Shown here piece by piece: positions 1 to 31,858 of a DNA stretch of 64,000 nt. Position 1 is the stretch's first letter; the number at the start of each line of letters is the position of its first letter. The stretch is from an uncultured virus (IMG/VR IMGVR_UViG_3300023184_009405). Taxonomy: Duplodnaviria; Heunggongvirae; Uroviricota; Caudoviricetes. The stretch lies in the IMG/VR virus record IMGVR_UViG_3300023184_009405; one strand, given 5' to 3'. The translations under genes and the position numbers were made by a program. The notes below the pieces were generated by a model. The model saw only the letters and a list, made by a program, of their open reading frames with translations, ran no database searches and was not told the origin of the DNA.

Positions 1-2346
1 AGGAGGCGGGGGCGTAGTAGGCGGTGGCGTAGTAGGCGGTGGCGTAGTAGGCGGTGGCGTAGTAGGCGGTGGCGTAGTAGGCGGTGGCGTAGTAGGCGGT
101 GGTGTAGTAGGAGGTGGCGTAGTAGGCGGTGGTGTAGTAGGTGGTGGTGTAGTAGGTGGTGGTGTAGTAGGTTCTGGAGTAGTAGGTGGTGGTGTAGTAG
201 GTGGTGGTGTAGTGGGTTCTGGAGTAGTAGGTGGTGGCGTAGTAGGCGGTGGAGTAGTAGGTTCTGGTGTAGTAGGTGGTGGAGTAGTAGGTGGTGGAGT
301 AGTAGGTGGTGGAGTAGTAGGTTCTGGAGTAGTAGGCGGTGGAGTAGTAGGTGGTGGTGTAGTAGGTTCTGGTGTAGTAGGTGGTGGTGTAGTAGGTTCT
401 GGTGTAGTAGGTGGTGGAGTAGTAGGTTCTGGTGTAGTAGGTGGTGGAGTAGTAGGCTCTGGTGTAGTAGGTGGTGGAGTAGTAGGCTCTGGTGTAGTAG
501 GTGGTAGTGTAGTGCCAGTACAGTTGCCACTAAAACTCATTGTAATTTCAGCAACTTTTCCATTTCCTGATCCTGGAGGATCAACATAAAAAATTTGTCC
601 AATTACAATTTTGTTGAAAGCTTCAAGACATTGACATACTACTACTCTTAAAAGAGGACCATTTAGATTAAGTGTAGTAATTGGATTTGCACCTGAAAAC
701 AAATGTGAATTAACATAATTAACTACATATAATTCACCAGCCGATGGATCACCACAAATTGCATTATAATCATTTGGATAATAAGCAGTTAAATTATAAC
801 TAATGCCATCCCAATTGTTTGTAAGCTTTAATTTTTCTTTTGAGACATTGCAATTTCCATCGAATTTTATATAAATAAATCCTATTTCATCACATGAACA
901 ATTGTAATTATATTGTCCTATCATTGCTTCTAATGGTTCATTGCATTGACATACAACGGCTCTCATTTCTGAGCCTTGAATATGTGAAATTGGCTTAGCA
1001 GCACCGCATGGCAGTGATGGCGGTAAATTAGAGTTGAAATAATTTATTACATGTTGTTCTCCTATGATTGGATTTTTACAAATTACAGAAACATCAATAG
1101 GATAAGAAGCAATTATTGTGTATTTTTTAGATATTGGATCAAATTCATGTGTTAAATTTAACTTATTATATTTTTCTATGTCGTTAGTTAAATGTTTTTT
1201 CTTTTTCAAATAAGAAAAAACATTTTTTTCTTTTTCTTTATCCCAGTTAGCAAGTGGCTTTGGCGTAGTTGTAATTTCTAAGAATGATTCTTTCCAATAT
1301 ATTTTTAATTTTAATTCTATGTTTTTTTCTAATGTACTATGAATAAGTTCTAGGTTATCGTCTAGATAAATATCAAACGGAGGTATTGATTTTAAATCTT
1401 CTACAATAATTTCTTTTTTTGAATGACTGTATATTTTAATCCAGTTGGTTCCATCCCATTTTAAATGGTTTAAATTTTTATAATTTCTAAAAATTGAACT
1501 TTTTAATTTTGCTTTTTCTTTTTCCTCTAAAACTTCTTTTTCGCTAATATAAATCCATACAGGATTTTCTTTTTTGCTTTTTTTTAATGAAAATATTTTT
1601 GATTTAAAATAAGGAATTAAATTTTTATATTTAAAAGGCAAAGGCAGAGGTGTAGTAATTAATCCATTGATATTTGAATTTAAAAATTCATCAACATCAT
1701 AGAAATTTTTTTCATTTGCAGGCAGTCCGCAATTTAAATTAAAAGTTGTTTCATTTTCAAATGGGCCACAAATAATATTGGTTTCAAAAGGATAATTTGG
1801 TTTATGTTTTTCAATATAATCACAAAAATAAAATTTTTGATCATTATCAACAGTTCCTTCTATTTGATAAAATCCTTCTGCTAGAATTGGTAATATAGCA
1901 ATGTTAGGATTTGAATTATTCAAAGGTGTTGGAGTAGTTATTGTAAATTTAGATTGGAATTTTGTTGATGGGTTTTCAGTAGTTGTAATTGCAATTGATT
2001 TTGAATTAGTTAAAGGTATTGGAGTAGTAAATGTAAACTTAGGCTGATTTTTTATTAATGGAAGCTCGGTAGTTGTAGTTGTAGTTGTAGTTGTAGTTGT
2101 AGTAGCTGTTTTATGTTTTTTAATAAATTTAGATGAAAATCTATTCATAGCGGAAGAAGTTGTACTTGGTTGACTAGTAGGACTACAGTTACATCCGCCT
2201 TTAGTATAAGGATTTACTATAAGTAATACTTCTGCCTCATTACAAAATGGTGGAGGGCAGCACTTGCAATCACATTTACAAAACCCACCCTTGCCAGTTA
2301 CAGGAAAAGGACCATTGCAAGAATGTGGTATTGGAGTTGTATTCAT
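1..2346 (-). CDS. Large Cys-rich, Pro/Thr-repeat (mucin-like) protein, probably virion-associated; runs off the window start (>=782 aa)
   Basis: Absent from the ORF track because no stop lies in the window. ATG at 2346 gives MNTTPIPHSCNGPFPVTGKGGFCKCDCKCCPPPFC..., a poly-Thr run, two related Cys domains (YP...IC.P..GE..V.NY.NS...VVCQC.E....IGQ), then PTTPP/PTTPE repeats in the same frame. TAAATA lies just upstream. Confidence 0.8.
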   Translation of the reverse strand, partial: MNTTPIPHSCNGPFPVTGKGGFCKCDCKCCPPPFCNEAEVLLIVNPYTKGGCNCSPTSQPSTTSSAMNRFSSKFIKKHKTATTTTTTTTTTTTELPLIKNQPKFTFTTPIPLTNSKSIAITTTENPSTKFQSKFTITTPTPLNNSNPNIAILPILAEGFYQIEGTVDNDQKFYFCDYIEKHKPNYPFETNIICGPFENETTFNLNCGLPANEKNFYDVDEFLNSNINGLITTPLPLPFKYKNLIPYFKSKIFSLKKSKKENPVWIYISEKEVLEEKEKAKLKSSIFRNYKNLNHLKWDGTNWIKIYSHSKKEIIVEDLKSIPPFDIYLDDNLELIHSTLEKNIELKLKIYWKESFLEITTTPKPLANWDKEKEKNVFSYLKKKKHLTNDIEKYNKLNLTHEFDPISKKYTIIASYPIDVSVICKNPIIGEQHVINYFNSNLPPSLPCGAAKPISHIQGSEMRAVVCQCNEPLEAMIGQYNYNCSCDEIGFIYIKFDGNCNVSKEKLKLTNNWDGISYNLTAYYPNDYNAICGDPSAGELYVVNYVNSHLFSGANPITTLNLNGPLLRVVVCQCLEAFNKIVIGQIFYVDPPGSGNGKVAEITMSFSGNCTGTTLPPTTPEPTTPPPTTPEPTTPPPTTPEPTTPPPTTPEPTTPPPTTPEPTTPPPTTPPPTTPEPTTPPPTTPPPTTPPPTTPEPTTPPPTTPPPTTPEPTTPPPTTPPPTTPEPTTPPPTTPPPTTPPPTTPPPTTPPPTTPPPTTPPPTTPPPTTPPPTTPPPTTPPPP
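13..510 (-). repeat. 15-bp tandem coding repeat encoding PTTP(P/E), about 33 units
   Basis: GTAGTAGG(C/T)GGTGG(C/T/A) and GTAGTAGGTTCTGG(A/T) units; variation falls mainly at third codon positions of the minus-strand frame. Confidence 0.95.
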
Positions 2347-11885: not shown

Positions 11886-13955
11886 ATGAGTTTATTAAAT
11901 AAAGTAGCAGAAAAATTTGACAAGAATAAATTTCACAATCTTAACGAAGAATTCACTTTCTCTGAATACTTAGAAAGATGTTATAAGAACCCAAAAGTAA
12001 TCAGGACAGCATATCAAAGAATTTATGATATGATTATTGCTAAAGGATATAAAGAATTTGAAAAATATAGAAAAACTTTAGTGCATTATAATTTTTTTGA
12101 TGATAGTGAAATTCCAATTTTTGGGCTTGAAGAAACAATTGATAGATTGATGAAATTTATAAAAGGTGCAGCTGGTGGATTTGGCACAGAAAAAAGAATT
12201 CTTCTTCTTCATGGGCCTGTTGGTTCTTCTAAGTCAACCATTCTTAGACTTTTAAAAAAGGGAATGGAAAGATACTCTCAGACAGATGATGGTTCTTGGT
12301 ATACATTTAAATGGATTAATCTTCCAACTGGTCCAGATGGAATTTATATTTCTGATTGTGACGAATGTCCAATGCATGAAGATCCGATTAAATTAATTCC
12401 TATTGATATTAGAAAAGGAATAATAGATGAGCTTAATGAAATTTATAGAAACAGCTTCAATGAAAAAGAAAGTATTAATGCTTATAAATTAAGAGTTGAT
12501 GGAGAGCTTGATCCAAGATGCAAGCTTTTCATGAACATGCTTTTGAAAAAATATAATGGTGATTGGGAAAAAGTAATAGAGAATCATATTGTTGTAATTA
12601 GAAAAGTTTATTCTGAATCTGATCGTTGTGGAATTGCTACATTTCAACCAAAAGATGAAAAAAATCAAGATAGTACAGAGTTAACAGGAGATATTAATTT
12701 TGCAAAGATTAGTCATTTTGGATCTGATTCTGATGCAAGATGTTTTTCTTTTGATGGTGAATTGAATGTTGGTAATCGAGGAATCTGCGAATTTATTGAA
12801 ATGCTAAAATTAGAACAAGCATTTTTGTATGATTTACTTGGTGCTTCGCAAGAAAGAAATATTAAACCTAAGAAGTTTTCTCAAATTTCTGTAGACATGT
12901 GTATTTGTGGACACACTAATTCTCCAGAGTTTGAAAAACTAAAGAACAATCCTTTTATGGAAGCATTGAGAGATAGAACTGTGAAAATTGATGTGCCTTA
13001 TTTACTTACATTGAAAGATGAAATTAAAGTTTTAGAACAAGATTATGGCAGTGATAAAATAAGACAGCATGTTGCTCCGCACACTTTGGAAGTTGCAGCT
13101 TTGTGGGCTATTTTAACAAGGCTTGAAGAAGACAGAGATAATAAAATTTCACCAGTAGACAAGGCTGAGCTTTATAACGGTAAGACTTTGTCAGGGTGGA
13201 CTGAAGATTCTGTAAAGGAAATGAGGGATAAATATCCAAACGAGGGAATGTCTGGTGGTATAAGTGCAAGATATGTTCAAGATAAAATTGCAAATTGTTT
13301 AAGTGATAATCATGATTACATCAATCCTTTTATGGTTTTAAATGAAATTAGAGATGGAATTGAAAATCATAGTTTAATTACAAATAAAGATCAAATTACT
13401 AAGTACATGAATTGTATTGATTTGACAATGAAGAAGCTTGATGAAATTCTTAAAACAGAAGTTCAAAAAGCTCTTGTTGGCGATGAAGAAGCAATTGTAA
13501 GATTGTGTGCTAATTATATTGATAATTTAATGGCTTATATTAATAAAAGCAAAGTTAAGAATCCTTATACTGGTAGAGAGGAAACTCCTGATGAAAGACT
13601 AATGCGTAGTATAGAAACTAAGATTGATATACCAGAAACTGGTGCTGATGATTTCAGAAGAATGGTTGCAGCTTTTATTGGCGACCTTGCACATAAAGGT
13701 AAAACCTTTAGTTGGAATTCTAATGTTCAATTAGGCAAGGCTTTTGAAGCTAAGTTGTTCGAGGACACCAAAGATCATATCAAGCTTTCATCTTTGAGTA
13801 ATTCTGGTGTTTTTGTAGCTGATGAACATCATCAGGAAAAAATTGATGCTGTTAAGTCAAGATTGATAAAGCTATTTGGCTATAATGAGAAATCAGCAAC
13901 TGATGTTTTGGATTATGTTTCTAGTCTTTATTCTCGTGGAAGTGCAGGTGATTAA
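11886..13955 (+). CDS. prkA: PrkA/YeaG AAA+ serine kinase/ATPase
   Basis: LLHGPVGSSKS Walker A, CPMHEDP, FQPKDEKNQDSTELTG, NRG..EFIE, EALRDR; likely start at ATG 11886 after GAGG. Confidence 0.93.
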   Translation: MSLLNKVAEKFDKNKFHNLNEEFTFSEYLERCYKNPKVIRTAYQRIYDMIIAKGYKEFEKYRKTLVHYNFFDDSEIPIFGLEETIDRLMKFIKGAAGGFGTEKRILLLHGPVGSSKSTILRLLKKGMERYSQTDDGSWYTFKWINLPTGPDGIYISDCDECPMHEDPIKLIPIDIRKGIIDELNEIYRNSFNEKESINAYKLRVDGELDPRCKLFMNMLLKKYNGDWEKVIENHIVVIRKVYSESDRCGIATFQPKDEKNQDSTELTGDINFAKISHFGSDSDARCFSFDGELNVGNRGICEFIEMLKLEQAFLYDLLGASQERNIKPKKFSQISVDMCICGHTNSPEFEKLKNNPFMEALRDRTVKIDVPYLLTLKDEIKVLEQDYGSDKIRQHVAPHTLEVAALWAILTRLEEDRDNKISPVDKAELYNGKTLSGWTEDSVKEMRDKYPNEGMSGGISARYVQDKIANCLSDNHDYINPFMVLNEIRDGIENHSLITNKDQITKYMNCIDLTMKKLDEILKTEVQKALVGDEEAIVRLCANYIDNLMAYINKSKVKNPYTGREETPDERLMRSIETKIDIPETGADDFRRMVAAFIGDLAHKGKTFSWNSNVQLGKAFEAKLFEDTKDHIKLSSLSNSGVFVADEHHQEKIDAVKSRLIKLFGYNEKSATDVLDYVSSLYSRGSAGD

Positions 13956-13958
13956 CAT

Positions 13959-14171
13959 ATGACACCAAGTAATTATTGGTTAGGAAGGCTTTGCACAAAA
14001 GATGATCTTAAAAAACTCGATGATTATTTGATGGAAGCTTGGTCTAATGATGCAACTGTTGACGAAGTCTTGTCTAACATGCCAAGTGAAATTAAATACT
14101 TTTTCTTGCAATTAAAAATAGGGTGTCCAAATCCTGCCAAAGATGGCATACAAATTACTTTTGATATTTAG
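13959..14171 (+). CDS. Small hypothetical protein within the prkA operon
   Basis: 70-aa ORF tightly packed between prkA and yeaH. Confidence 0.6.
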   Translation: MTPSNYWLGRLCTKDDLKKLDDYLMEAWSNDATVDEVLSNMPSEIKYFFLQLKIGCPNPAKDGIQITFDI

Positions 14172-14183
14172 AAAGGGGTTTTA

Positions 14184-15380
14184 GTGCCTCGAAGAATAAC
14201 TGAAGATCATAACCAGTTTAGAGATGTTGTATCTGGTAAGATTAGAAAAGGACTTAAGAAGTTTATCAAAAGTGGCCAGATTTTTAAAAATCGAGGCAAA
14301 AATGGTAAAATTTCAATTAACATTCCAAGGATTGATATTCCTCATATTGTTTACGGAGATAATCCATCTGGCGTAGGTAGAGGAGGAGGTAAAAAAGGAG
14401 ATGTAATTGGAAAAGATGATGACAAGAATAACAAAGCAGGACAAGGTGATGCAGAAGGAATAACGATAAATTTAGATTTAGAAGAAGTATTAAAATTCAT
14501 GCAACATGAATTAGAACTTCCAGATTTAAAACCAAAAGAAAATGGAACATTTGAAGATGTAAAAATTAAATATAATAATATAAGTTTAGTTGGACCTGAT
14601 TCTTTAAGGCATACTAGGCGAACAATGTTACAAGCTTTAAAAAGATTATGTAGCACTGGAGAAATTAATAAGCTGTATGAAATACCAGGGTATAAAGATA
14701 AAGTTAAATTATTAACGCCAATTAATTCCGACAAAAGATTTAGACAATATAAAGAAATTAAGACACCTTCTAACAATGCATTGATTATTTACGCAAGAGA
14801 TGGCTCTGGTTCTATGGGTGCAGAGAAATGTGAAATTGTTAGTGATATGTGTTGGTGGATAGATGTTTGGATTAAAAGATTTTATAAAAGAGTGGAAAGA
14901 ATGTTTGTTTGGCATGATAATAATGCCATGGAAGTAGATGAGGATAAATTTTATAGGTATAGACAAGGAGGTGGAACAACTTGTTCTTCTGCCTTTAAAT
15001 TAATTTCTCAACAATTTGAAAACAGATTTCCACCTCGCAATTGGAACATTTATGTTTTTTATTTTACAGATGGTGATAACTGGGATGATGACAATAATGA
15101 TTTGCTTCAAACTATTGATAAAAATTTTAAATCTAGCGATGTTAATCTTCTTGGTGTAACTCAAATTTATTCTTTTGATACAAAAACCAGCGTTAAAAAT
15201 GTTTTAGATGAAGGCATGGCTAGCAATAAAATTAATAATGTAAATTTGAAAACTTATGATATTAATAGTGGAAGTGGAAATTTTGATTTGGCAAATAATG
15301 AAGAATTAAGAAATAATCAAATATTAGATGCAATTAAGCATTTACTTGGAACATCTAAACAAAAACATATAATTTTTTAG
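14184..15380 (+). CDS. yeaH: YeaH/YhbH (DUF444) vWA-domain protein
   Basis: DH..FR, Gly-rich linker, LELPDL, MIDAS-like DGSGSM...GGT...FTDGDNW. Confidence 0.9.
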   Translation: MPRRITEDHNQFRDVVSGKIRKGLKKFIKSGQIFKNRGKNGKISINIPRIDIPHIVYGDNPSGVGRGGGKKGDVIGKDDDKNNKAGQGDAEGITINLDLEEVLKFMQHELELPDLKPKENGTFEDVKIKYNNISLVGPDSLRHTRRTMLQALKRLCSTGEINKLYEIPGYKDKVKLLTPINSDKRFRQYKEIKTPSNNALIIYARDGSGSMGAEKCEIVSDMCWWIDVWIKRFYKRVERMFVWHDNNAMEVDEDKFYRYRQGGGTTCSSAFKLISQQFENRFPPRNWNIYVFYFTDGDNWDDDNNDLLQTIDKNFKSSDVNLLGVTQIYSFDTKTSVKNVLDEGMASNKINNVNLKTYDINSGSGNFDLANNEELRNNQILDAIKHLLGTSKQKHIIF

Positions 15381-15389
15381 GTCAATAAA

Positions 15390-18215
15390 ATGTCAAATAA
15401 ATTTTTTCACGGATCTTCTATTTTACATGGAAATGGTACAGTTCCTGGCGTTCCACTTCCAGAAGAACTCAAAAAACTTATACCTACAATTTTTAAAGAA
15501 TGTAAAGATTATGGTTTAGATTATTATCCAACTATTGTACAGATGCTTTCTTATGATGAAATTAGTGAAATAGCATCATATGGTGGATTTCCTGTAAGAT
15601 ATCCTCATTGGAAATGGGGCATGGAATACGAGGAATTACAGCGTGGGTATGAATATGGAATGCATCGTATTTTTGAAATGGTTGTAAATTGCGTACATCC
15701 AGATACAAAAATACCTACCAATAAAGGCTCTATTGAAGCTAAACATGTTAAAGAAGGCGATAAAGTATTTTCAAATAATGGTGAAAAATTAGTTGCTAAA
15801 GTAGTAAAGCAAAAAAAGTCAAAAACACTTAAAATTAAACTAAGGGATCAAATCAGAGATTTGGTTTGCACTGAAAACCATAAATGGTTGACTTTAACAG
15901 AAAACGGCAATGAATGGAAGGAAACTAGAGATTTAAAGCCAAACGATCTTTTGATTGGTGGTAATATTTATAGTTATTTTTTAAAAACTCCATGCCAATT
16001 AAATACTAATTTTACAAAAGAAATGTCTTTAGAGCTAGCTGAGTTTCTAGGTGCATTTTATGCATCTAGTCCTGTTTTAAAAAACAATGAACTTTCTATT
16101 AGCTTTGAATCTGGAGATAAATCATTTGATAAACTAACATATATTTTAAAATTTTCTTTCGAATTATTTAATTCTCAAGTAAAAATTTTAATGGAAAACA
16201 ATTCAATTAAAATATTTTTTACTGATTCTAATACTTTAAATTTCTTTAATTTTATTGGATTATCTAATAAAATACCTGATGTAATAAGTTTGTCTTCAAA
16301 TGAATACAAGGCAGCTTTCGCAAGAGGATATTTTAGTTTTTCTGCTAAAATATTCAAAGATAATAAGTATGTTTTACATTTTACGCAAATTGAAAAAAAC
16401 ATAGCTTCAGATCTTCAACTTGTCTTAGCAGAATTTGGAATTTATACTATAGCTAAAGAAGAAGAAAGTAAATTTTTTGAAATTAGTATTTGTGGCAAGA
16501 AAAATTTAATAAGTTTTTTGAAATATATAAATTTGTTTTTTCATAAAAAAGACGCAGATATGATTCTTTTTAATTATGAAGGTTATAGTTATAATATAAA
16601 ATCTGAAATTATACAGAACAAAGTCTTAGAAACTTTAAATAAAATTAATAATGTTGCATTTTTTATCAACAATAGAAGTACAATAGATGATCTTAGAAAA
16701 GCTCCTCAGAACTTGAGCTACATAGAAGCTTTTTTGGAAAATAACTTTATTGATTATTATGTAAAAGAGTTCGAAGAAATATTACAATATTTCAGCAATC
16801 CGCTTTTCCAAATAGAATCAATTAATGAAGATGTAGAACAAGAGACAATAGACATTGCGTTATTTGATGAAAATCATGATTTCATGGCAAACGGTATCAT
16901 TAGTCATAATACTAATCCATGTTATATTTACTGCTTAAATAGCAATACGCTTGTTGATAATGTAACTGTTATTGCACATGCATTAGGTCATAATCACTTT
17001 TTTAAAAATAATATTTATTTTTCGCCAACTAGTCAAAATATGATGAATGAATTTGCCAATAATGGCATAAGAATAAAAAAATACATGGCTAGGTATGGCA
17101 AAGAAAAAGTTACTGAATTTATTGATTGTATTTTGAAAATTGATACTTTGATAGACCCAGCTAAAGCTTGGGAAAATAAAACAATTAAAGATCCAATTAT
17201 AAAAGACGAAAAGAAATATATTTATCCAAGTAGAATAAAATTAAAAAATGATAGATTACACTTAGATCCTTGGATTAATTCTAGAGAAAGCATTGAAAAG
17301 GAAAACAAGTTAATTAAAGAACAGGAAGCTAAAGAAGAAATAGGATTATTTCAAGATCCAACAAAAGATATTCTTGGATATCTTAGAGATAACGCAAATC
17401 TAAAGCCATGGCAAAGAGATATTGTATCAATGCTTTATGAAGAAGCATTATATTTTTATCCACAGGCTATGACTAAAACATGCAATGAAGGATGTGCTAG
17501 TTTTATTGATTATCAAATTATGGCAAGAAATGGATTGGTTGGCTTGGGACAAAAGTCTCATGATGATGGAATTATAGAATATGCCAAACATAAAATGTCA
17601 GTTCTTGGAGGTAAGTATTCTATGAATCCTTACAAGCTAGGATTTTATTTACTGCTTGATATTGAAGAAAGATGGAATAAAGGCAAGTTTGGCAAAGAAT
17701 ACGATGAATGTCAGGATGCCAATCAAAAAGAAAAATGGGATAAGAATTTAGGATTAGGCAAAGAAAAAGTATTTGAAATATGGAAATATTACGATGATGT
17801 TAATTTCATTAATGAATTTTTCACTCCTGAGTTTTGTCAAAAGAATGAGTTTTTTGAATGGGAGAAACATCCAAATGGGGAATATGTAATTTCTTCTAAG
17901 GACTCTGTAAAAATAAAAAGAAAATTAATGCAAAAGCATTTAAATAGAGGATTACCAGAAATTAAATTAATTGATCCAAATCATAAAAATAAAGGATATT
18001 ATCTACTTGAGCATACTTGGGATGGAAGAGTTATTTATCAGCCTTATGTTGGAGAGGTTTTATCTGCAATTTTTATTTTAACTGGCAAACCTGTTGTGCT
18101 GACAACAAAAAACAAAAACAACGAAGATATTGTTTATGTAGCTCCAACTAAAAAAGCAGACGATTTGCAAGTTTATAGAAAAGAAGAATATTTTAAAAAA
18201 TGGAACATGTTTTAA
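15390..18215 (+). CDS. spoVR: SpoVR/YcgB family protein containing an intein
   Basis: GFPVRYPHW..G..Y, IFEMVVN|intein|TNPC, AHALGHNHFFKNN, TK..NEG.AS, NPYKLG. Confidence 0.92.
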   Translation: MSNKFFHGSSILHGNGTVPGVPLPEELKKLIPTIFKECKDYGLDYYPTIVQMLSYDEISEIASYGGFPVRYPHWKWGMEYEELQRGYEYGMHRIFEMVVNCVHPDTKIPTNKGSIEAKHVKEGDKVFSNNGEKLVAKVVKQKKSKTLKIKLRDQIRDLVCTENHKWLTLTENGNEWKETRDLKPNDLLIGGNIYSYFLKTPCQLNTNFTKEMSLELAEFLGAFYASSPVLKNNELSISFESGDKSFDKLTYILKFSFELFNSQVKILMENNSIKIFFTDSNTLNFFNFIGLSNKIPDVISLSSNEYKAAFARGYFSFSAKIFKDNKYVLHFTQIEKNIASDLQLVLAEFGIYTIAKEEESKFFEISICGKKNLISFLKYINLFFHKKDADMILFNYEGYSYNIKSEIIQNKVLETLNKINNVAFFINNRSTIDDLRKAPQNLSYIEAFLENNFIDYYVKEFEEILQYFSNPLFQIESINEDVEQETIDIALFDENHDFMANGIISHNTNPCYIYCLNSNTLVDNVTVIAHALGHNHFFKNNIYFSPTSQNMMNEFANNGIRIKKYMARYGKEKVTEFIDCILKIDTLIDPAKAWENKTIKDPIIKDEKKYIYPSRIKLKNDRLHLDPWINSRESIEKENKLIKEQEAKEEIGLFQDPTKDILGYLRDNANLKPWQRDIVSMLYEEALYFYPQAMTKTCNEGCASFIDYQIMARNGLVGLGQKSHDDGIIEYAKHKMSVLGGKYSMNPYKLGFYLLLDIEERWNKGKFGKEYDECQDANQKEKWDKNLGLGKEKVFEIWKYYDDVNFINEFFTPEFCQKNEFFEWEKHPNGEYVISSKDSVKIKRKLMQKHLNRGLPEIKLIDPNHKNKGYYLLEHTWDGRVIYQPYVGEVLSAIFILTGKPVVLTTKNKNNEDIVYVAPTKKADDLQVYRKEEYFKKWNMF
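15690..16910 (+). mobile_element. Intein (407 aa) with a degenerate LAGLIDADG homing endonuclease
   Basis: Block A CVHPDT, block B CTENHKW, terminal ANGIISHN with Thr at +1; removal restores SpoVR ...EMVVN-TNPC... Confidence 0.92.
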
Positions 18216-18251: not shown

Positions 18252-19100
18252 TTATGGGTGTAGTAGTTTATTTAGATTAATATACCTACTTAAACATTTT
18301 TTTGTTTTTAAGTTTGAATAAAAATAATTGCATAATCTACGAGAGCTAGATCCTTCGTTTGACTTAATTATTATTGAATCTTCTGGAAGCGATTGAGTTG
18401 CTATTATTGATAACGAACTATCTATTCCAATAAATCCTTTTGAATTTTTAACTATTTCAATTGCTTCAAAATAATTTGTTTTTCCTGTTAGATTTATAAA
18501 ACAATCTTCTTTAAGTATTTCTTTGAACCACAAGTTATTCAAGTACCAATTTTGATTATTTAAGATAACTCCTTTGATATTACTTGATTTTAATATTTTT
18601 ATTGTTTCTTGCCAGTCTTCAATTTCAAATAATCTTTTTTTTGTCCATGAATATGTCCATCCTGATATTGAAATATATTTGTCTGGAAGTTTAAATTTAT
18701 CAATTTCACATAATTTTTCTTTAACAAAAGAATAGTTTTTAATGTTTTCTTTTTCTAGTAATTGTTCATATTTTCCTTCATAGAAATTCCAATCTATTAA
18801 AACTTTATCTTTGTTTATTTCTTGATTTTCATGAAAGTAATGATTTATTGAATTGTTTTTAATTTCAATTTTATTTATTCCGTGTGGTATTTTAACAGTT
18901 GTTTTTTTACAATTTTTATTATAAAATTTACTTTTGCTCATGCATTCAAAGTGTGGAATAGTTTCATTGCTGCTTAAGTAGATTACTTCTTTTAAATTTA
19001 TTTTTTCTTTGTCAGTTAGAAATGATTCAAAAGCAATGAAATCTCCTATTGCTTTTGATATTACTATGTATTCGTAAAAAAATCTTTCTTCGTTGTTCAT
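18252..19100 (-). CDS. GT9 (heptosyltransferase-like) glycosyltransferase
   Basis: AIGD, INLTGKT...EAIEIV...FIGIDS.LS..A. Confidence 0.8.
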   Translation of the reverse strand: MNNEERFFYEYIVISKAIGDFIAFESFLTDKEKINLKEVIYLSSNETIPHFECMSKSKFYNKNCKKTTVKIPHGINKIEIKNNSINHYFHENQEINKDKVLIDWNFYEGKYEQLLEKENIKNYSFVKEKLCEIDKFKLPDKYISISGWTYSWTKKRLFEIEDWQETIKILKSSNIKGVILNNQNWYLNNLWFKEILKEDCFINLTGKTNYFEAIEIVKNSKGFIGIDSSLSIIATQSLPEDSIIIKSNEGSSSRRLCNYFYSNLKTKKCLSRYINLNKLLHP

Positions 19101-19191: not shown

Positions 19192-20565
19192 ATGGCTGTT
19201 AAAGTTATTGGATTTGAACATTTGCATTTGCATACTACTACAGGAAGCTTACTTGATGGTTTTGGATTGCCAATTGAATATGCTAATCGCTGGCAACATC
19301 ATGGTCAGTTTTTATGTATAAGTGATCACGGTACATTAAATGCAGTACCGCTTCAAATTAAAGCTTGTGATGAAATAAATGATAGTAAAAAAACAAAGGC
19401 ATTACAGCCAATTTACGCATGTGAACTTTATGTAAATCGCATGCATTTTGAGCCTACTGCAAATGAAAAACAAAGAAGCGTTTTTATGGAAAGGCTATCT
19501 CCAGAAGAATTAAGTGAATTTAAGATTAAAGGCAATCACCTTCTTGCGATAGCAATTAATCAAGAAGGATACAAGAACCTTGTTAGAATGAGTTCTTGGG
19601 GGTTTATGAATGGGTTTTATTCTAAACCAAGAGTCAACTATGAAATATTAATTAAACACAAGGAAGGCATCATATTTACTTCTTGTTGTTATGCAAGCGA
19701 AATAGGCAGAGCATTTGAAAATAAAGGATGTGAAGCTGCTGAAGAAGTATTAGTTAGATATATGGGTATGTTTAAAGGGCAGTTTTATTTAGAGATTATG
19801 CTTTTGGATTTTAAAAAACAAAAACCATATGATATTTTTATTTTGAAAATGAAAGAAAAATATAATCTTCCTTTGATAGTAAGCAACGATGTGCATTATT
19901 GCCTACCAGAAGATTCTCATTATCAAAGATTAATGTTAATGATACAAACTGGCAGAACAGTTCCAGAAATAAAAAAAATGATTGAATCTAAAGATGATTC
20001 TGTAAACGATTTATTTGAATTACAAGATTCAAATCTTTGGATGAAAACCGAAGAAGAATTAAATCAAATGTGGCTTGAAAAATATAGTGATGCTATTCCT
20101 TTGGAAATATTTGAAGAAGCAAAAAAGACAACTGTAGATATTTGTCAGATGGCAAAAGGTGTAGAGTTAGACAGGAGATTGAAGTTTCCGCAATTACCAA
20201 ATGAAGAAGAATTATTAAAAGAAGAAATCAACAAAGGTGTTAAATTTAGAAATATTCCAAGAACAAAAGAATACCTTCTCAGAATACAAGAAGAATATGA
20301 CTTGGTTTGCAGGAAAGGATTTGCTTCTTATTTTTTAATAGTTCAAAAAATGACAAGTGAAGCAAGAAGAGTGGCACCAAAAATACTAGGGTTTGGCGAT
20401 GGGCGGGAAGCTGTTGGTCCTGGCAGAGGTTCGGCTGTGGGATCTTTGGTTTTATATTTAATGGGAGTTACTGATGTTGATCCAATAAAAGAAGACTTGT
20501 TGTTTAGTAGGTTTTTAAGTGATGCCCGTGGTGGCAAACAGTACAAATTAAGATTTTCTGATTAA
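19192..20565 (+). CDS. dnaE: DNA polymerase III alpha, N-terminal half (PHP domain plus start of palm)
   Basis: HLHLHT..SLLDG, ISDHG, NDVHY, GFASYFL, GPGRGSAVGSLV, DP...LLFSRFL, then stop. Confidence 0.92.
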   Translation: MAVKVIGFEHLHLHTTTGSLLDGFGLPIEYANRWQHHGQFLCISDHGTLNAVPLQIKACDEINDSKKTKALQPIYACELYVNRMHFEPTANEKQRSVFMERLSPEELSEFKIKGNHLLAIAINQEGYKNLVRMSSWGFMNGFYSKPRVNYEILIKHKEGIIFTSCCYASEIGRAFENKGCEAAEEVLVRYMGMFKGQFYLEIMLLDFKKQKPYDIFILKMKEKYNLPLIVSNDVHYCLPEDSHYQRLMLMIQTGRTVPEIKKMIESKDDSVNDLFELQDSNLWMKTEEELNQMWLEKYSDAIPLEIFEEAKKTTVDICQMAKGVELDRRLKFPQLPNEEELLKEEINKGVKFRNIPRTKEYLLRIQEEYDLVCRKGFASYFLIVQKMTSEARRVAPKILGFGDGREAVGPGRGSAVGSLVLYLMGVTDVDPIKEDLLFSRFLSDARGGKQYKLRFSD

Positions 20566-21140
20566 TCTAAATTATTTATTATTTTTTGTATTTCATTCAT
20601 TATTTCTTTTGTTAATACATCAGCTACTTTTTCATAGGTAGCACTTGGATGAAAATCAACATAAATTTTTATTCTGTGATTGTGAGGTTCAAAATCTTCA
20701 AGTTTTTTCAGATAGTGTTTTCTCATTCCACCTACCTCTGGTATTGTTTTGGCATAATCTAATTTTGATTGATAATCAGATTGTGCTTCTTCTTTTTCTT
20801 TTGCTATACCCATGTGATAAAAATCATTTATATTCACAGGTTTATCGAAATTTTTAAATTTATAATTCTTGTAATCAAGTAAAGCTTCGTCATGGTTGAA
20901 ACTATCATCAATTTCAGTTAACGATAGAAATAATGTAACATCTATGTCTTTTAATTCATTTTTATTGGTTTTATATGAAATGACAAAATCTTCAAAATCA
21001 GGATGATCTGTTTTTGGGTTTTTATTTGAGAAATATTTTTGAATTGCTTTTTTAATGATGGATTCAGAATCTTTTAGAATAACAGGATGTACCGATGCTT
21101 CTAAATAAAGTTTATTGTAAAAATCGTAAAAACTTCTCAT
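20562..21140 (-). CDS. Hypothetical protein with FYDFYNKLYLE N-terminal motif
   Basis: 192-aa ORF, AAGGA RBS; lies between the dnaE halves. Confidence 0.7.
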   Translation of the reverse strand: MRSFYDFYNKLYLEASVHPVILKDSESIIKKAIQKYFSNKNPKTDHPDFEDFVISYKTNKNELKDIDVTLFLSLTEIDDSFNHDEALLDYKNYKFKNFDKPVNINDFYHMGIAKEKEEAQSDYQSKLDYAKTIPEVGGMRKHYLKKLEDFEPHNHRIKIYVDFHPSATYEKVADVLTKEIMNEIQKIINNLD

Positions 21141-21185
21141 GCTTTTCCTTATTAATTGGTTGTCTAAATTATATTAATTTTATTG

Positions 21186-21203
21186 AATCATTGACCAATG
21201 ATT
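21186..21203 (-). promoter_or_regulatory. Bacterial SECIS-like hairpin
   Basis: UGA + 11 nt + AAUCAUU-GGUC-AAUGAUU; GGUC occupies positions 22-25 counting the U of UGA as 1. Confidence 0.7.
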
Positions 21204-22000
21204 TAAAATTTACCTCATCCTTTTTTAGACTTCTTCATTTCCATTTCTTCTGGTTGATTCTCTGGGTCTTCGATTGTAGTAATAATATCTTCTACATCAG
21301 TTTCGCCAGTATCAATATTTGTATCTCCTTCGTCTTCTTCACGATTATCCTCTTCTTCACCATTACTGATTTTTTCGAATTCTGGGAATTTCATCATAGC
21401 TTTGCACATTTTACCAAAGCAACCCTTACGCCTTGCTTCATGCATTAAAGCTCTTACGATATGGGGGTTTTTATTCATTACATAAACTAAATATTGAATT
21501 GCTTGGATTGGATCTGGATGGGAATTACCTGCATAGTAAGAAGTAATATGTGGAGCAATTTCATTTTCGCAGCCACAATGTTCATTTACCATTGTATTTA
21601 TAAAATCTTTAGTAGAAAAATCTTTAGTTGCTTCTATAAATGATTCATTATTTAATTTTGTAAAATTTACAATGTTATCTTTATCACCAACATTAGCAAG
21701 ACCATTTTCTAATTCCTTTGCAGAAGGTTGTTTAGCAGGTGCATAATAAGGATTTGGAGATGGTTTTACAGATTTTGGAACATCATAGCCTAAATTTTTA
21801 GAAATGTTTTTTTCTGGAGATTTGGGCTGTGAAGTTGGTATTTTATTCTTGTGTGCCAATGTTTTTTCATAATTATCAGCAGATACCTTTGAAGGATCTT
21901 TGTTGGTTTTTGAAATATCAAGATCAGCAGCTAAATTATCTGGCTTTGATTTAATTTTCTTTTTATTATCGAAATATTCGCTAAATTTTTTGAAGCTCAT
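21203..22000 (-). CDS. Protein with FKKFSE N-terminal motif; candidate selenoprotein ending ...KKSKKG-U-GKF (261 aa if UGA is a stop, 265 aa if read through)
   Basis: GGA TGA GGT AAA TTT TAA followed by the SECIS-like hairpin; TAAATA and AAGGGG upstream; internal CGC and C.....C. Confidence 0.7.
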
Positions 22001-22097
22001 GTTTATCCCCTTTTAAAATAAATTCTTATTGTATTTATGCTTTTTTGTGCTAAAATTAAAAGAATTATTAATAAAAAGGATTTAGAAAGGATTTAGC

Positions 22098-24641
22098 ATG
22101 TCAGAACAAGAAGTTTTGAAAAATTTATGCTTTGAAAATCTCAAAGTAAAAGTAAATCAAGATGATTACAAATTATATTCAAAAAGGCTAACCAATGAGC
22201 TTATTCAAATTGAAGTACAAGAAGAAACTAAATATTTTTTAGAATTATATAATATTTGTAAGAAATATGAAAAAAATCAAAATAATCTTATTGTTCCTTG
22301 GCTTTTAAATATTTGCTCTGATTTTAATATTAGTGAGGAAGCCAATTATAAGATGGGTGAATTACCAGATATTGATATAGATTATTTGCCACAAGTAAGA
22401 GATTATTTAAAAAATGAATGGGCTATCAATGAATTTGGCAGAGAATATGTTTGTAATATTGGAAACTATGGAACTTTTGGTCTTAAATCTACTTTCATTG
22501 ACATGGCTAGGGTTCATGGATTGGATAGAGGTGAAATATTAAATATAACTAAACAATTAAGACTTAAAGATGATGAAGGTCATGCCTTGGGATTTGAAAA
22601 AGCTTTAGAATTATATCCTGAATTGAAGATTTATTGTGAAAAATATCCTGATATTGCTTTGGCTGTTCAAAAATTGCTTCATAGAAATCGTTCTATGGGA
22701 AGGCATGCTGGTGGATTAATTATATCTTCAGAAAGGATTGATAATTTTGTTCCTCTTGCAAAAAATGCAAAAGATGAAACTTGTGCTAGTGCATGGGGTG
22801 AGGGATTGCATGGACAAGATTTAAGCCCTGTTGGTCTTATTAAAATGGACATGCTTGTAATTGATGTTTTGAATCAAATAGCATTAGCTTGTAAAATGAT
22901 CAAAGAGAGACATGACATACAAAATATTTCTGCTAATGTTGGAGAATGGGATTGGAGTGATTTAAGTTATTTAAACGATGAAGTATGCTTGAAAGCTGCC
23001 AGCGATGGAGATTTAAAAGGAATATTTCAATTTGATGGTGAAGGCATTAGAAATTTAGCAAGACATGCAAAAATAACTTCTTTTGATGATTTAGCTGCAT
23101 TAAATGCACTTTATAGACCTGGTTGTTTGTTAATGGGTATGGATAAAGCTTTTGCAAATAGAAAAAACAAAAGAGAAGATTATGAAATCCATCCATTACT
23201 TAAGCCAATTCTTGGAAAAACCTACGGAGTAATTTTATATCAGGAACAAGTCATGCAAGTTTTAAATGTTGCAGGAAGTATTCCTTTGCGTGATTGTTAT
23301 CAAGTGTTGAAGGCTATTTCTAAAAAGAAAGGATCAATTTTTGAAAAATATAAAAATATATTTTTAGAAAATGGAAAAATAAATTTAGGCTATAACGATG
23401 AAGAAATTAAAAATCTTTATGATTACCTTTTAAGTTTTTCTGAATACGGCTTCAATAAAAGTCATGCGTATGCTTACACATACATATCTGCACGACAGCT
23501 TTTTTTAAAATGTTACTACCCAATTGAATTTTTCTGTGCTTCTTTAATCACTGAAAAATCTGAATTAAAAGCAAAGGAAATGATAGTTGAAACAAATAAA
23601 AAAGGTATAGAAGTCTTGCCTATTTCTATAAATGCTTCTAATGTTGATTATGCAATTCAAGAAGGTAAAATTACAATTGGTTTTTCAAATATAAAAGGAA
23701 TAGGTATTGAGAAAGCCGAAAGAATTGTTGCGAACAAGCCATATATTGATTTATTTGATTTCTTACAGCGTTATGGTTCAGATGCAAATGTTTTAAAATC
23801 TTTGATTGCCTTGAATGTTTTTGCTGAATTTGAAAAAGATAAAACCAAAGAACAAATTTATATTTATTGGCTTAAATATTGTTACTTAGAGAAAAACATA
23901 AAAGATAAAATCAAAAGAAATCAAGTTTCTTTTGAAAATTTAAAAGAGAAAACAAAAGAGTTTTTACCAAGCAATTATTATGAAAAGATGCCATTTAAAT
24001 CTTCGGCATTTCAAAAATTGATTGCTTACTTTGAGTCTTTGAAAGAGCCTGAAAAATACAAAACTTCTATAAGTGGTCTAAAAAAAATATTAAAAAGTCT
24101 TCAAAGAATAGAAGATTATAAGCCAGAGAGCATCGTCAGAAAAATGGTTGAAGATATTCCAGATAATAAAGTTACCATAGACAAAGAATACATTGATTCT
24201 TTGTCACAAAATAATTATTGCGAAGAAAAATATTATGGTTTCATATGGAAGACAAATATTGAAACATCTCCTGATTTTATTGGTGGTTATACTGTAGAAG
24301 CATACAACCAATTGATTGAAGATGGTTATACTTTTGGAGTTTTAGAATTAGAAATTGAAAAAATAGAAAAAAGAAAAGGTCAAAAGAACAATTATTATCA
24401 AGTAACAGCATCTGATTTTAATTGTGAAAAAATAAAAATAAACATTTGGATGGATGATTATGAATTTTTTAAAGAAGAATTAAAACAAAGTAACTTAATT
24501 AAAGTACAACTTGAACCACCATCTGGTGGATTTCCTACATATTCTTTGAAGAGATTGTCGTGGGAAGAAAAAAGATCGAAGAAAAGGACAAAAAGTTCTG
24601 ATTTTAGAATTGTTTTAATGAGGAAGCAGATAAATGATTGA
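22098..24641 (+). CDS. dnaE: DNA polymerase III alpha, C-terminal half (catalytic palm, thumb, fingers, HhH, OB-like)
   Basis: LPDIDID, GRHAGG, LIKMDML, GIFQF, ALYRPG, YQEQVM, YGFNKSHAYAY, IKGIG. Confidence 0.93.
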   Translation: MSEQEVLKNLCFENLKVKVNQDDYKLYSKRLTNELIQIEVQEETKYFLELYNICKKYEKNQNNLIVPWLLNICSDFNISEEANYKMGELPDIDIDYLPQVRDYLKNEWAINEFGREYVCNIGNYGTFGLKSTFIDMARVHGLDRGEILNITKQLRLKDDEGHALGFEKALELYPELKIYCEKYPDIALAVQKLLHRNRSMGRHAGGLIISSERIDNFVPLAKNAKDETCASAWGEGLHGQDLSPVGLIKMDMLVIDVLNQIALACKMIKERHDIQNISANVGEWDWSDLSYLNDEVCLKAASDGDLKGIFQFDGEGIRNLARHAKITSFDDLAALNALYRPGCLLMGMDKAFANRKNKREDYEIHPLLKPILGKTYGVILYQEQVMQVLNVAGSIPLRDCYQVLKAISKKKGSIFEKYKNIFLENGKINLGYNDEEIKNLYDYLLSFSEYGFNKSHAYAYTYISARQLFLKCYYPIEFFCASLITEKSELKAKEMIVETNKKGIEVLPISINASNVDYAIQEGKITIGFSNIKGIGIEKAERIVANKPYIDLFDFLQRYGSDANVLKSLIALNVFAEFEKDKTKEQIYIYWLKYCYLEKNIKDKIKRNQVSFENLKEKTKEFLPSNYYEKMPFKSSAFQKLIAYFESLKEPEKYKTSISGLKKILKSLQRIEDYKPESIVRKMVEDIPDNKVTIDKEYIDSLSQNNYCEEKYYGFIWKTNIETSPDFIGGYTVEAYNQLIEDGYTFGVLELEIEKIEKRKGQKNNYYQVTASDFNCEKIKINIWMDDYEFFKEELKQSNLIKVQLEPPSGGFPTYSLKRLSWEEKRSKKRTKSSDFRIVLMRKQIND

Positions 24642-25101
24642 AGAAAAAGTTTTAATCGAAGAATCTAATGTAGACAATGATTTAATTATAGATGAAAGTA
24701 ATTTCTCGCAATATTTTCGAGATGCTTCTAAATTTGCTCCACAAAAAGGGGATGTCTTGGTTTGTTACAGAGCAAATGCTGATTTTGTTTATGGTGATTT
24801 AAAAAAAGATGTAGTTGATTTATTGTCTAATTCAACATTTGGGGCTAAAACTAGCATACAAATTATTAAAAAATTGGCTAAAACTAATGAAAAAGAAGCT
24901 GTTTTATTGACTAGAAAAATATGTGAAGATTTATATGGTGGTATGACAGAAGATGAAGTATTAGCAAAACCATATTCTTATTTATTTGAAATGTTTTTCT
25001 TTGCTAAAAAACAACATATTCCAGCTGATGATAAGCATTGGGAATGCATGACTATAACTAATCTAGGCGAATATTTAGAAAAGAGGGGGAGCTTGTCTTG
25101 A
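24634..25101 (+). CDS. Hypothetical protein
   Basis: 155-aa ORF coupled to dnaE. Confidence 0.7.
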   Translation: MIEEKVLIEESNVDNDLIIDESNFSQYFRDASKFAPQKGDVLVCYRANADFVYGDLKKDVVDLLSNSTFGAKTSIQIIKKLAKTNEKEAVLLTRKICEDLYGGMTEDEVLAKPYSYLFEMFFFAKKQHIPADDKHWECMTITNLGEYLEKRGSLS

Positions 25102-27652: not shown

Positions 27653-27988
27653 ATGAGAAGAAAATATAATGTCAGAGTTGAAGTTAAAGGTTATCATTAC
27701 AATTCTTCAAGCACGACAACAGAAAAACAATTTAAAATTTTAATGTCAGAATTTCGCAAAGCTTGTCATGCTTCTGGTATTATTAAAGAAATGAAGAAGC
27801 GTGAATTTTATGAATCTCCAAGCGAAAAGAAAAGAAGACTTAAAAAAGAACAAGAATTAAATTTGTTTAAACAAAAAATGAAGGAAAGTTTTGTTTCTAG
27901 TGGCAATGGTTCTAATATAAGTGGATCTAATTTCAGTGGACCTAATAATAGCGGTAACAGTTTTAATAAAAAACCAAAAGGCAAGTAA
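27653..27988 (+). CDS. rpsU: Ribosomal protein bS21 with Asn/Gly/Ser-rich C-terminal extension
   Basis: FRKAC..SGIIKEMKKREFYESPSEKKRR. Confidence 0.88.
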   Translation: MRRKYNVRVEVKGYHYNSSSTTTEKQFKILMSEFRKACHASGIIKEMKKREFYESPSEKKRRLKKEQELNLFKQKMKESFVSSGNGSNISGSNFSGPNNSGNSFNKKPKGK

Positions 27989-27990
27989 TA

Positions 27991-28257
27991 ATGCGACCTA
28001 TTAAAAAAGAAAAGAATTTTTGGGTTTCTCTTGATAATGAAGATTACGAAAAGCTAAATATTTTGGCTGAATCTAAAAATATTCCATTAAAAGAATTTGC
28101 TGGAAGCATTTTAAAGAAAAATTTAATTTGCGACAAAGAAATTGCTGTAATTTTAAAAATACCAAAGGAAAAAATTAGTTCCACGGAGAGCTTGCAAGAA
28201 TGGATGAGTCAGCAAACAAAAGTATTAATTGGTTTATTAAGCAAAAAAAAGAACTAG
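27991..28257 (+). CDS. Small hypothetical protein (possible ribbon-helix-helix)
   Basis: VSLDNEDYEKLNILA...PLKEFA..IL. Confidence 0.55.
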   Translation: MRPIKKEKNFWVSLDNEDYEKLNILAESKNIPLKEFAGSILKKNLICDKEIAVILKIPKEKISSTESLQEWMSQQTKVLIGLLSKKKN

Positions 28258-28742
28258 AAGTAGTTTCTGCTTTAAATATCCCAATTAAAGAAGATGTTTT
28301 ATATGCTAAAGATCAGAATCTTATAGAGATAGCCAAAATTTCTTTGTTAATGCAAAATATTTGCTTGAAAGAAAATGGAGTTGGTTTATCTGCTGTGCAA
28401 CTTGGAATACCTTATAAGATTTTTATTGCTAAAAATTATGATATATCAAATGAATTTTATACTTTTGTAGATTGTCAATATGAAGGCATTGGCAATAAAA
28501 ATACATCTATTGAAGGATGTTTAAGTTTAAAAACCAAATCAAATCAGATTAAAAGATATAAACTTGAGAGATTTCCATCAGTTGTATTAAAAGGTCTATA
28601 TTTTAGCTTTGAAAATAACATGAATTTAATTCCTTTTGAAAAACAATATGATGGCTTTTTCTCAAGCATTCTTCAGCATGAAATAGATCATCAAAATGGC
28701 ATTTTGATTTCTGATATTGGAAAAGAAATGGATTTATATTAA
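28200..28742 (+). CDS. def: Peptide deformylase
   Basis: GVGLSAVQLG, EGCLS and QHEIDH motifs; exact start uncertain. Confidence 0.92.
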   Translation: MDESANKSINWFIKQKKELEVVSALNIPIKEDVLYAKDQNLIEIAKISLLMQNICLKENGVGLSAVQLGIPYKIFIAKNYDISNEFYTFVDCQYEGIGNKNTSIEGCLSLKTKSNQIKRYKLERFPSVVLKGLYFSFENNMNLIPFEKQYDGFFSSILQHEIDHQNGILISDIGKEMDLY

Positions 28743-29002
28743 TGCCATTATCTTTAAAGCAAATTGAATATATTTGTTTGCATGAAAATACCGATGGTAA
28801 AAAATGCAGATATTTGGCAAGAGATTCTAAAAAATCTAATAATTGGATTTGCTTAAAAAAAACAAATAAAAGACTGCTTATAGATAGAGAAGTTAATGAT
28901 TATAAATTAACAATGAAAAATTATATGACAGAAGAAATGCCTCCACTTGGAGATAACTGCGAAGGTTTTACAATAATGAAGCATTTAACTCAAGGCATTT
29001 GA
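28742..29002 (+). CDS. Cys-containing hypothetical protein
   Basis: 86-aa ORF, TAATG coupling. Confidence 0.65.
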   Translation: MPLSLKQIEYICLHENTDGKKCRYLARDSKKSNNWICLKKTNKRLLIDREVNDYKLTMKNYMTEEMPPLGDNCEGFTIMKHLTQGI

Positions 29003-29022
29003 AAAGTTTTTTAAAAAACTTA

Positions 29023-29050
29023 TTGACAATAAAAAATATTGAAATATCAT
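29023..29050 (+). promoter_or_regulatory. Sigma70-like promoter
   Basis: TTGACA-16 bp-TATCAT. Confidence 0.6.
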
Positions 29051-29103
29051 CTCTGTAAAGCTAAAGATTTAGCTTATTTAACATTTTAAGAAAGGATTTC
29101 AAG

Positions 29104-29481
29104 ATGATTAATTCTTTTGCCGAAGTTGAAGATTTTGATGAAGAAGGCATTGACGATAGTATTGTAAACTATTTTTATAATGCGATTAGATCGTACTTTA
29201 AAGATAAAGTTGATCAAAATCAAGTTCCTTTTTTAAATAAATTTAATCACTTTCCATCTGATGAAGATATTAATTTTATTAAAGAAACTAACTTGTCAAT
29301 AGTATTAGATTATTGCTACCCTTTGCTTAGTAAATTCATTAAAGAAGATGAAAACTTAGGTAGTGTTACATCTGATGTTAAAATTGTACTAGATATATTA
29401 AATGACATGTCAAGAAAGAATGTACCAAAAGAAATTTCAGCAGGAATGCTATATTATTTGATAAAACATTGTTATAATTAA
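29104..29481 (+). CDS. Hypothetical protein
   Basis: 125-aa ORF, AAGGA RBS. Confidence 0.7.
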   Translation: MINSFAEVEDFDEEGIDDSIVNYFYNAIRSYFKDKVDQNQVPFLNKFNHFPSDEDINFIKETNLSIVLDYCYPLLSKFIKEDENLGSVTSDVKIVLDILNDMSRKNVPKEISAGMLYYLIKHCYN

Positions 29482-29489
29482 GGTATTTT

Positions 29490-30195: not shown

Positions 30196-30198
30196 ACT

Positions 30199-30948: not shown

Positions 30949-30955
30949 CTAATTT

Positions 30956-31483: not shown

Positions 31484-31518
31484 TTAATTAGTTTAATTTA
31501 TATGCAAAGGAATTTAAA

Positions 31519-31854: not shown

Positions 31855-31858
31855 TAAA

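Follow-up and report, generated by a model that had tools for sequence, protein, structure and literature searches.

Known systems and the focal locus

The selenocysteine insertion sequence (SECIS) of E. coli fdhF, in which a UGA is followed by an 11-nucleotide (nt) spacer and a short hairpin with a G and a U in its small apical loop, resembles an element at the 3' end of a gene in a 64,000-nt stretch of DNA from an uncultured virus (IMG/VR record IMGVR_UViG_3300023184_009405; the whole stretch is referred to here as the window). The focal open reading frame (ORF) lies on the minus strand (21215..22000, TGA included in the span) and encodes a 261-amino acid (aa) member of a huge-phage protein family; its TGA is followed by a three-codon tail, a backup TAA and a hairpin. 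The loop of this hairpin, GGUC, agrees in letters and positions with that of fdhF, and the likeness extends to the UGA and the hairpin offset, which are kept across diverged homologs of the focal gene. The fdhF element also has a bulged U17 contacted by SelB, whereas the window stem has no bulge, consists of A-U pairs but for one C-G pair, and is no more stable than shuffled sequences. Unlike in fdhF, the focal element is phage-borne and lies past the backup stop in the 3' untranslated region (UTR), not within the coding region, and it comes with no cysteine/selenocysteine pair, no visible selenocysteine (Sec) machinery and no match to an Rfam SECIS family.

Two further systems are close in other respects. 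In mammalian thioredoxin reductase engineered for E. coli, a SECIS placed after the stop codon reportedly works for insertion of a C-terminal Sec; that construct shares with the focal gene a UGA a few codons before the stop and a hairpin after it, and has Sec-Gly in a flexible tail, as proposed for the focal protein, but it is artificial and ends in Gly-Cys-Sec-Gly, whereas the focal tail has no adjacent Cys and a variable preceding residue. In the A1 protein of phage Qbeta, a UGA is read by a minority of ribosomes to give a minor extended form, as may happen at the focal locus. The extension is about 200 residues in Qbeta versus 2 to 3 here, Qbeta is an RNA phage and not a huge double-stranded DNA (dsDNA) phage, and it is not known to have a hairpin like the one conserved here at a fixed spacing.

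As judged by sequence comparison, a conserved module is made up of the TGA, its following Gly codon and the two codons left in the tail, together with a TAA in frame at +13..15 and a hairpin that begins at +15 (the T of TGA being 1). The gene whose 3' end carries this module is itself conserved in huge phages, and we consider the module most likely to be a UGA recoding signal, with a probability of roughly 0.5. Were the UGA recoded, the stop with its short tail and hairpin would make a compact conserved signal in a dsDNA phage, reflecting either phage use of the host Sec machinery or a structured read-through signal in bacteria; we are not aware that a natural case of either has been described in phages of this kind. 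Should the UGA be an ordinary stop, the locus would illustrate how a textbook-looking SECIS can arise in AT-rich DNA, and how tests for Cys/Sec pairs and for Sec machinery remain necessary.

The TGA codon, tail and hairpin

The minus strand from 21220 to 21181 reads GGA TGA GGT AAA TTT TAA ATCATTGGTCAATGATTCAATA. The TGA (21215..21217) is followed by GGT AAA TTT, coding for Gly-Lys-Phe, and the backup TAA at 21205..21203 (tail and TAA together 21203..21214, minus strand). The hairpin (21186..21203, minus strand) starts 11 nt past the TGA, at position 15, and has a perfect 7-bp stem formed by the arms AATCATT (21203..21197) and AATGATT (21192..21186), closed by the loop GGTC (21196..21193, positions 22-25). 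It overlaps only the final A of the backup TAA, and no U-tract follows. These letters, coordinates and spacings are as an earlier note, made from the sequence alone, had given them, as are the perfect stem, the position of GGUC and the missing U-tract. ViennaRNA agrees with the hairpin and places it within an extended two-tier structure (21176..21210, minus strand), present in both the minimum free energy and the centroid folds, in which the upper hairpin is set on a 3-nt bulge and a second, lower stem of 7 bp (21210..21204 paired with 21182..21176).

By itself the hairpin is no better than chance. Its energy is -3.4 kcal/mol against a shuffle mean of -2.96 (z -0.25), with 68 of 200 shuffles folding as well; the window holds 175 perfect 7-bp hairpins, compared with 99 ± 12 in 20 Markov simulations, and 15 of its 77 ORFs have one within 70 nt past the stop. 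A promoter-like site, TGGTCA-18 nt-TATAAT (21168..21197, minus strand; 10/12 matches), lies upstream of the ORF at 20562..21140, with its -35 box overlapping the hairpin loop; such sites number 11 in the region and 11.2 in shuffles. The inverted repeat itself has 28 window matches at up to three mismatches against 41.6 expected, and matches with 0-1 mismatch occur only at the focal site.

Conservation of the module

Further homolog DNA comes from two loci, L010 and L012, both of which have the same TGA codon. The L010 protein is 95% identical to the focal protein and its 3' region is identical. The L012 protein is 40% identical, and four-fold degenerate sites of the flanking polymerase genes agree between window and L012 at 37/92 (DnaE-N) and 54/124 (DnaE-C), where 0.40 is expected at saturation; since neutral sites are saturated, inheritance cannot account for the features that the two share. 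L012 reads TGA GGG GCT TAA TAA with AAC before the TGA, and its 7-bp hairpin (arms AAACTCA and TGAGTTT, loop GTT; -5.2 kcal/mol, z -1.04) starts at +15 as in the window, the background density of such hairpins being 0.002-0.003 per position. MAFFT gave no alignment of the two 3' regions. With the T of TGA as the common starting point and no gaps, 18 of 37 positions are identical, including TGAGG, TAAA at +13..16, C18, G22 and T24. Three stem pairs are shared and the remaining four are changed on both sides, and the loops are GGTC and GTT. The third base of the Gly codon differs (GGT in the window, GGG in L012), as expected under coding constraint, and G occupies only 5% of four-fold sites. Stop codons of other orthologs vary, with DnaE-N and SpoVR each using TAA, TAG and TGA, and are kept only where genes overlap.

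The special status that the earlier note gave to this UGA is supported by the kind of homolog comparison that the note proposed. The pattern that the note had named as speaking against it, homologs ending in other stop codons and lacking the hairpin, is not what we see: the codon is TGA wherever it is visible, and L012 has a hairpin at the same offset.

Among close relatives, the TGA is unchanged in contigs of four runs, in which the preceding codon becomes Glu or Ala. In the more diverged X11 contigs, third positions vary at 21227, 21230, 21233 and 21236 (the preceding Ser, Lys, Lys and Met codons) and no change is listed at 21188..21218 save for one extra base of the A-run in one contig; this is soft evidence, as X2 and X11 leave parts of the stretch uncovered and the list omits differences close to the ends of contigs.

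Gene calls that continue past the TGA

Four clusters of the family each hold one JGI member, on a contig of 1.4-2.1 kb, that exceeds the others of its cluster by 3 to 4 residues and has W at the TGA position (P0063, P0077, P0081 and P0098). The extended ends are ...KKSKKK-W-GKF, ...KKSKKG-W-GKF, ...KKSKKN-W-GAY and ...KKSAKN-W-GA, so that the window's GKF recurs in two other clusters and GAY or GA is found in the 40% clade. For ...KKSAKN-W-GA the W corresponds to TGA, because L012, whose DNA shows TGA, belongs to the same cluster; for the other three we infer the same from gene calling with TGA as Trp (code 4) on short AT-rich contigs. In these clusters, every ENA and Logan member stops ahead of the W. 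Taken together, a TGA, a Gly codon and a short tail are present in 5 to 6 of 17 clade clusters and none shows a different stop; where the site is visible, stop identity and extension are conserved, there are no sense-codon variants, and only the JGI calls with TGA read as W extend. The extension is short, three codons of which the last is lost in L012; its Gly is kept, and its KF or AY agrees with the family motif described below. We note that calls of this kind on short AT-rich contigs expose sequence past a TGA stop where no DNA is obtainable.

The tail and a family motif

Eighteen sequences form one clade that ends at the same column in ...KKS(K/A)K-x, with G, E, K or N as x, while a sister clade continues past that column as GD[KS]xYxKG[LI]SD[YF]A[ST]. 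Among family representatives of at least 200 aa (n=135), 54 have a basic-basic-(basic)-F/W motif within the last 70 residues, compared with 3.8 ± 2.0 in shuffled tails. Its usual form is PKKLKKKF-AHDHLLDAM; P0172 has MKKSSKKF, and the C-terminus of P0211 is RRKF. The window counterpart is MKKSKKG-TGA-GKF-stop, in which the Lys-Phe past the TGA occupies the place of the family's Lys-Phe, with G-TGA-G looking like an insertion in the basic patch. This sequence match is supportive and not decisive, because AAA TTT is an easy string in AT-rich DNA.

Interpretation of the conserved module

The comparisons show that the module is conserved and that its tail agrees with the family motif; translation of the tail is an inference. 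In a recoding signal of this kind, most ribosomes would stop at the UGA via RF2, while in a minority a residue would be put in at the UGA, extending the protein by x-Gly-Lys-Phe (in the 40% clade, x-Gly-Ala-Tyr or x-Gly-Ala). Read-through would restore the Lys/Arg-patch-plus-aromatic motif carried by most of the family, the protein would exist in two forms of slightly different length, and the hairpin would sit just outside a ribosome paused on the UGA. Recoding would account for the conserved UGA, the free third base of the Gly codon, the fixed TAA, the KF match and the place of the hairpin. The inserted residue could be Trp, delivered either by tRNA-Trp as a near-cognate or by a suppressor tRNA of the phage, in which case the hairpin would help read-through or stabilize the 3' end, a version that we hold tentatively and with some doubt; it fits the preference of the family for an aromatic residue after the basic patch, and to our knowledge hairpin-assisted read-through has no precedent in bacteria.

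Several observations weigh against recoding. The stability of the hairpin is not above that of shuffles, homolog DNA covers only two independent lineages, the W-extended lineages beyond L012's cluster depend on equating W with TGA by code 4, and 11 to 12 of the 17 clade clusters, among them those of P0003, P0004, P0006-P0009, P0011 and P0013-P0016, gave no information on the stop codon. No sense codon (TGG or TGY) stands at the site in any ENA or Logan member, suggesting that termination there is wanted. In E. coli, a UGA with G as the next base is not known to be leaky. L012 lacks the third tail codon (TAA TAA), making the aromatic end dispensable, and AAA TTT is a likely string at 27% GC. 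Close relatives also show the tail frozen at its synonymous sites, which points to constraint on RNA or DNA and not on coding alone.

The earlier note proposed that the residue is Sec, and we regard this as unlikely on present evidence, while recognizing what speaks for it. In this reading host SelB with Sec-tRNA would bind the hairpin 11 nt past the UGA, and the product would end in ...K-x-U-G-K-F. Sec insertion is the only known bacterial mechanism that recodes UGA by a hairpin at such a spacing, the UGA is conserved across homologs, and the hairpin offset is kept despite a changed stem, with G22 and U24 common to both loops. The bacterial SECIS is characterized in the available text of PMC1088965 as a stem-loop just past the UGA with a guanosine in its small apical loop, and as far as that text goes the window and L012 hairpins fit (PMC1088965). 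With the UGA only four codons from the end, the SECIS would fall within the 3' UTR. The focal protein has an invariant CGC, and 16 representatives of the family have a C-terminal CxnC, showing that tail Cys residues do occur in it; in a selenoprotein the tail selenol would partner the CGC site, which is replaced by a C-terminal CxxC in other family members. The available text of a 2026 review states that Cys homologs exist for almost all selenoproteins (PMC13188914). At the TGA column no Cys is found in the 18 clade sequences, in 40 aligned sequences or in the tails of 147 representatives, no Cys-extended member was found among the cluster members fetched, and the sister clade has Asp at this column (GD[KS]xY). 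Directly ahead of the UGA stands G, E, A, K or N, and the G-U-G or G-[U/C]-G signature expected by the note is not conserved. Nor is the element strictly of the fdhF type that the note saw in it: G23 and U24 are present in the window, but the stem has seven perfect pairs and no bulge, and the L012 loop is GTT. Both hairpins are weak (-3.4 and -5.2 kcal/mol; z -0.25 and -1.04) with no bulged U, and Rfam SECIS families are unmatched at E ≤ 10 in window 20400..22200 and L012 3600..3900, which is weak evidence, short hairpins scoring poorly. The window has no selA, selB, selD or tRNA (Sel domains were sought in 75 ORFs), and in five related viral records the one tRNA-Sec model match over the cut-off is a tRNA-Ser(TGA). 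The predicted fold is without a redox relative, the partly accessible literature that a search returned held no natural phage selenoprotein, and the available text of the 2026 review (PMC13188914) has 0 mentions of phage or virus. Of the selenoprotein proposal, then, the conserved UGA and hairpin offset stand, while a Cys/Sec pair, Sec machinery in the window and an Rfam SECIS match are missing, and we think it unlikely that this freshwater huge-phage clade makes a natural selenoprotein with a 3'-UTR SECIS and Sec as the fourth-last residue of a disordered basic tail.

That the UGA simply terminates translation, with nothing translated past it and UGAGG plus the hairpin forming an RNA- or DNA-level element that overlaps the stop, is a serious possibility to which we give rather less than even odds. 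Such an element could be a 3'-end stabilizer, a regulator site, a Shine-Dalgarno-like ribosome-holding sequence or, in the window clade, the -35 box and operator of the promoter for the next gene. UGAGG is a Shine-Dalgarno core, and in AT-rich phages no other conserved G-rich motif is as common; the tail synonymous sites are as frozen in close relatives as the hairpin, as for a nucleic-acid element. The hairpin arms make a 7-4-7 inverted repeat of typical operator shape with TGGTCA-18-TATAAT overlapping the loop, and the loose end of one diverged X11 contig (one consensus) keeps CATAAT at the 18-nt spacing. The L012 hairpin lies in a convergent terminator region beside a strong bidirectional terminator (-19.8 kcal/mol, z -4.46), and hairpins past stop codons are common in the window, as noted above. 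An overlapping element leaves unexplained why it has to begin exactly at the stop, why an in-frame TAA is fixed at +13..15, and why the KF match and the GGT/GGG difference occur. Neither the window nor L012 has a start codon at a workable distance past GAGG, the inverted repeat is unique in the window and promoter-like sites are not above shuffles, and a promoter cannot explain conservation in L012, because L012 has no downstream gene on that strand. A coincidence, in which an ordinary TGA stop precedes an AT-rich palindrome and the likeness to relatives is accidental or inherited, would suit the unremarkable single-sequence statistics, the choice of the site by a search of 64 kb for anything striking, and the fact that some features (GG, G22/U24) were spotted afterwards. 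Against this, neutral sites are saturated between window and L012, TGA-GGN is seen in three more lineages, and neighboring ortholog stops are not conserved unless genes overlap; we estimate the joint occurrence of TGA (~0.09), GG (~0.02) and a hairpin at +15 ± 2 (~0.01-0.02) at ~1e-5 for L012 alone, and consider coincidence very improbable.

Other mechanisms were examined and rejected. A tRNA hop over GGA-UGA-GGU is possible in the window only, L012 having AAC-UGA-GGG; a frameshift on the A-run does not fit L012, where the run is not conserved; and an overlapping mini-ORF or translational coupling would use ATG AGG TAA, which is present in the window only, with no start at a workable distance from GAGG. 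A repeated operator is inconsistent with an inverted repeat that occurs once in the window, and an intrinsic terminator with the lack of a U-tract and a negative terminator scan at the site.

The focal protein family and the split polymerase gene

The focal protein begins MSFKKFSEY and contains a CGC motif, and both the FKKFSE N-terminus and the CGC reported in the earlier note are present in the translated ORF. It matches 0 families in Pfam and PHROGs. Its relatives number 34 in a 90% protein collection and 173 clusters (E ≤ 0.001) in a 50% library, a large uncharacterised family tied to a split replicative polymerase in huge phages. For the P0017 cluster there are contigs as long as 308 kb. 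No close relatives were found in IMG/VR or GenBank phages, GTDB genomes give one distant relative, and an ESM Atlas search returns one viral cluster at 0.76. AlphaFold models have a predicted local distance difference test score (pLDDT) of 60 with 40 sequences and 74 with 139 sequences, the predicted fold being mostly disordered with a small helical core, and a Foldseek search of the model against PDB and BFVD gave nothing at E ≤ 0.001.

The 16 representatives with a C-terminal CxnC are among P0198-P0258; 14 of them are without any CxC and two have CxC only near the N-terminus, and the core EHCGCE members are without a C-terminal Cys pair, so that the Cys pair seems to occupy one place or the other. 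One database protein, P0032, fuses the N-terminus of the focal family to the glycosyltransferase-9-like protein encoded at 18252-19100 in the window, and is probably an assembly or deletion chimera lacking the DnaE-N region.

The focal gene is antisense between two halves of DnaE. The N-terminal half (19192..20565, plus strand) has the PHP domain and positions 3-98 of Pfam DNA_pol3_alpha, and the C-terminal half (22098..24641, plus strand), divergent from the focal gene, has positions 99-259 together with the finger and HHH_6 domains. The cut thus falls between DNA_pol3_alpha positions 98 and 99, just ahead of the PDxDxDF motif, and each half has its own start. Downstream of the focal gene and co-directional with it is an ORF (20562..21140, minus strand; 192 aa) that has no family match and is absent from the L012 lineage. 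At 24 fetched loci (L001-L024, including several near-duplicates), DnaE halves flank the family member on both sides in 12, at least one half is present in 21, and none is present in three. The split arrangement recurs in GC-rich and AT-rich huge-phage contigs (also in L033, 5001-8540), and DnaE is unsplit in LR756511.1, where it is a single 1179-aa ORF. The C-terminal half begins with some 86 additional residues similar to those that precede the split, and no intein signature was seen at the split junction.

T4-related phages include some in which the DNA polymerase gp43 is split by inserted DNA, and in them the replicative polymerase is likewise cut into two separately translated halves by a gene-carrying insertion. 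In contrast to gp43, the window polymerase is of the DnaE type (family C) and is cut just before the PDxDxDF catalytic motif, and the insert is antisense, belongs to a large conserved family, and has no nuclease domain that we could see.

The phage and other features of the window

The window is from a freshwater huge phage and not from a eukaryotic virus, because Shine-Dalgarno sequences precede its genes, its gene content is of bacterial type, its closest GenBank phage record is LR756511.1, and its DNA is found in lake, freshwater and drinking-water metagenome runs. Lake RNA runs (X16-X20) were found as well. LR756511.1, a 595-kb uncultured phage, has 51% identity over DnaE-N. The TAAATA promoter and the virion packaging that the earlier note suggested for the focal gene find no support in a bacteriophage with Shine-Dalgarno sites and bacterial-type genes. 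The window has 27% GC, and 77 non-overlapping ORFs of at least 90 aa cover 87.5% of it under code 11, ending in TAA (61), TAG (9) or TGA (7). An alternative genetic code with TGA as Trp or Gly was rejected: no credible ORF has an internal in-frame TGA, reading through TGA gives a coding coverage of 0.890, compared with 0.875 under code 11, and all seven TGA-ending ORFs meet another stop within 2 to 12 codons.

The predicted genes include PrkA, DUF444, an intein-bearing SpoVR, PhoH, several glycosyltransferases, and HNH and TnsA-like nucleases, together with ribosomal protein S21, peptide deformylase, IF3, a DnaJ-like protein, ClpX and a sigma-70 factor. The trio PrkA, DUF444 and SpoVR at 11865-18215 adjoins the polymerase in the phage genome. 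Within it, the SpoVR-like gene (15390-18215) holds an intein with a LAGLIDADG domain (Pfam Intein_splicing, LAGLIDADG_3 and Hint), and the alignment to the L012 SpoVR homolog begins only at query residue 507. The S21, peptide deformylase, IF3, DnaJ-like, ClpX and sigma-70-like genes form a translation and proteostasis cluster at 27653-33000 and 48385-51541, and an ORF with a TnsA-like endonuclease domain (4633-5283) and an HNH endonuclease ORF (41693-42328) are both possibly mobile. A small gene past DnaE-C (24634-25101) likewise ends in TGA in three lineages (the window, L003 and L008), and an identical TATTTG that follows this TGA in L003 and L008 probably stems from an overlapping feature.

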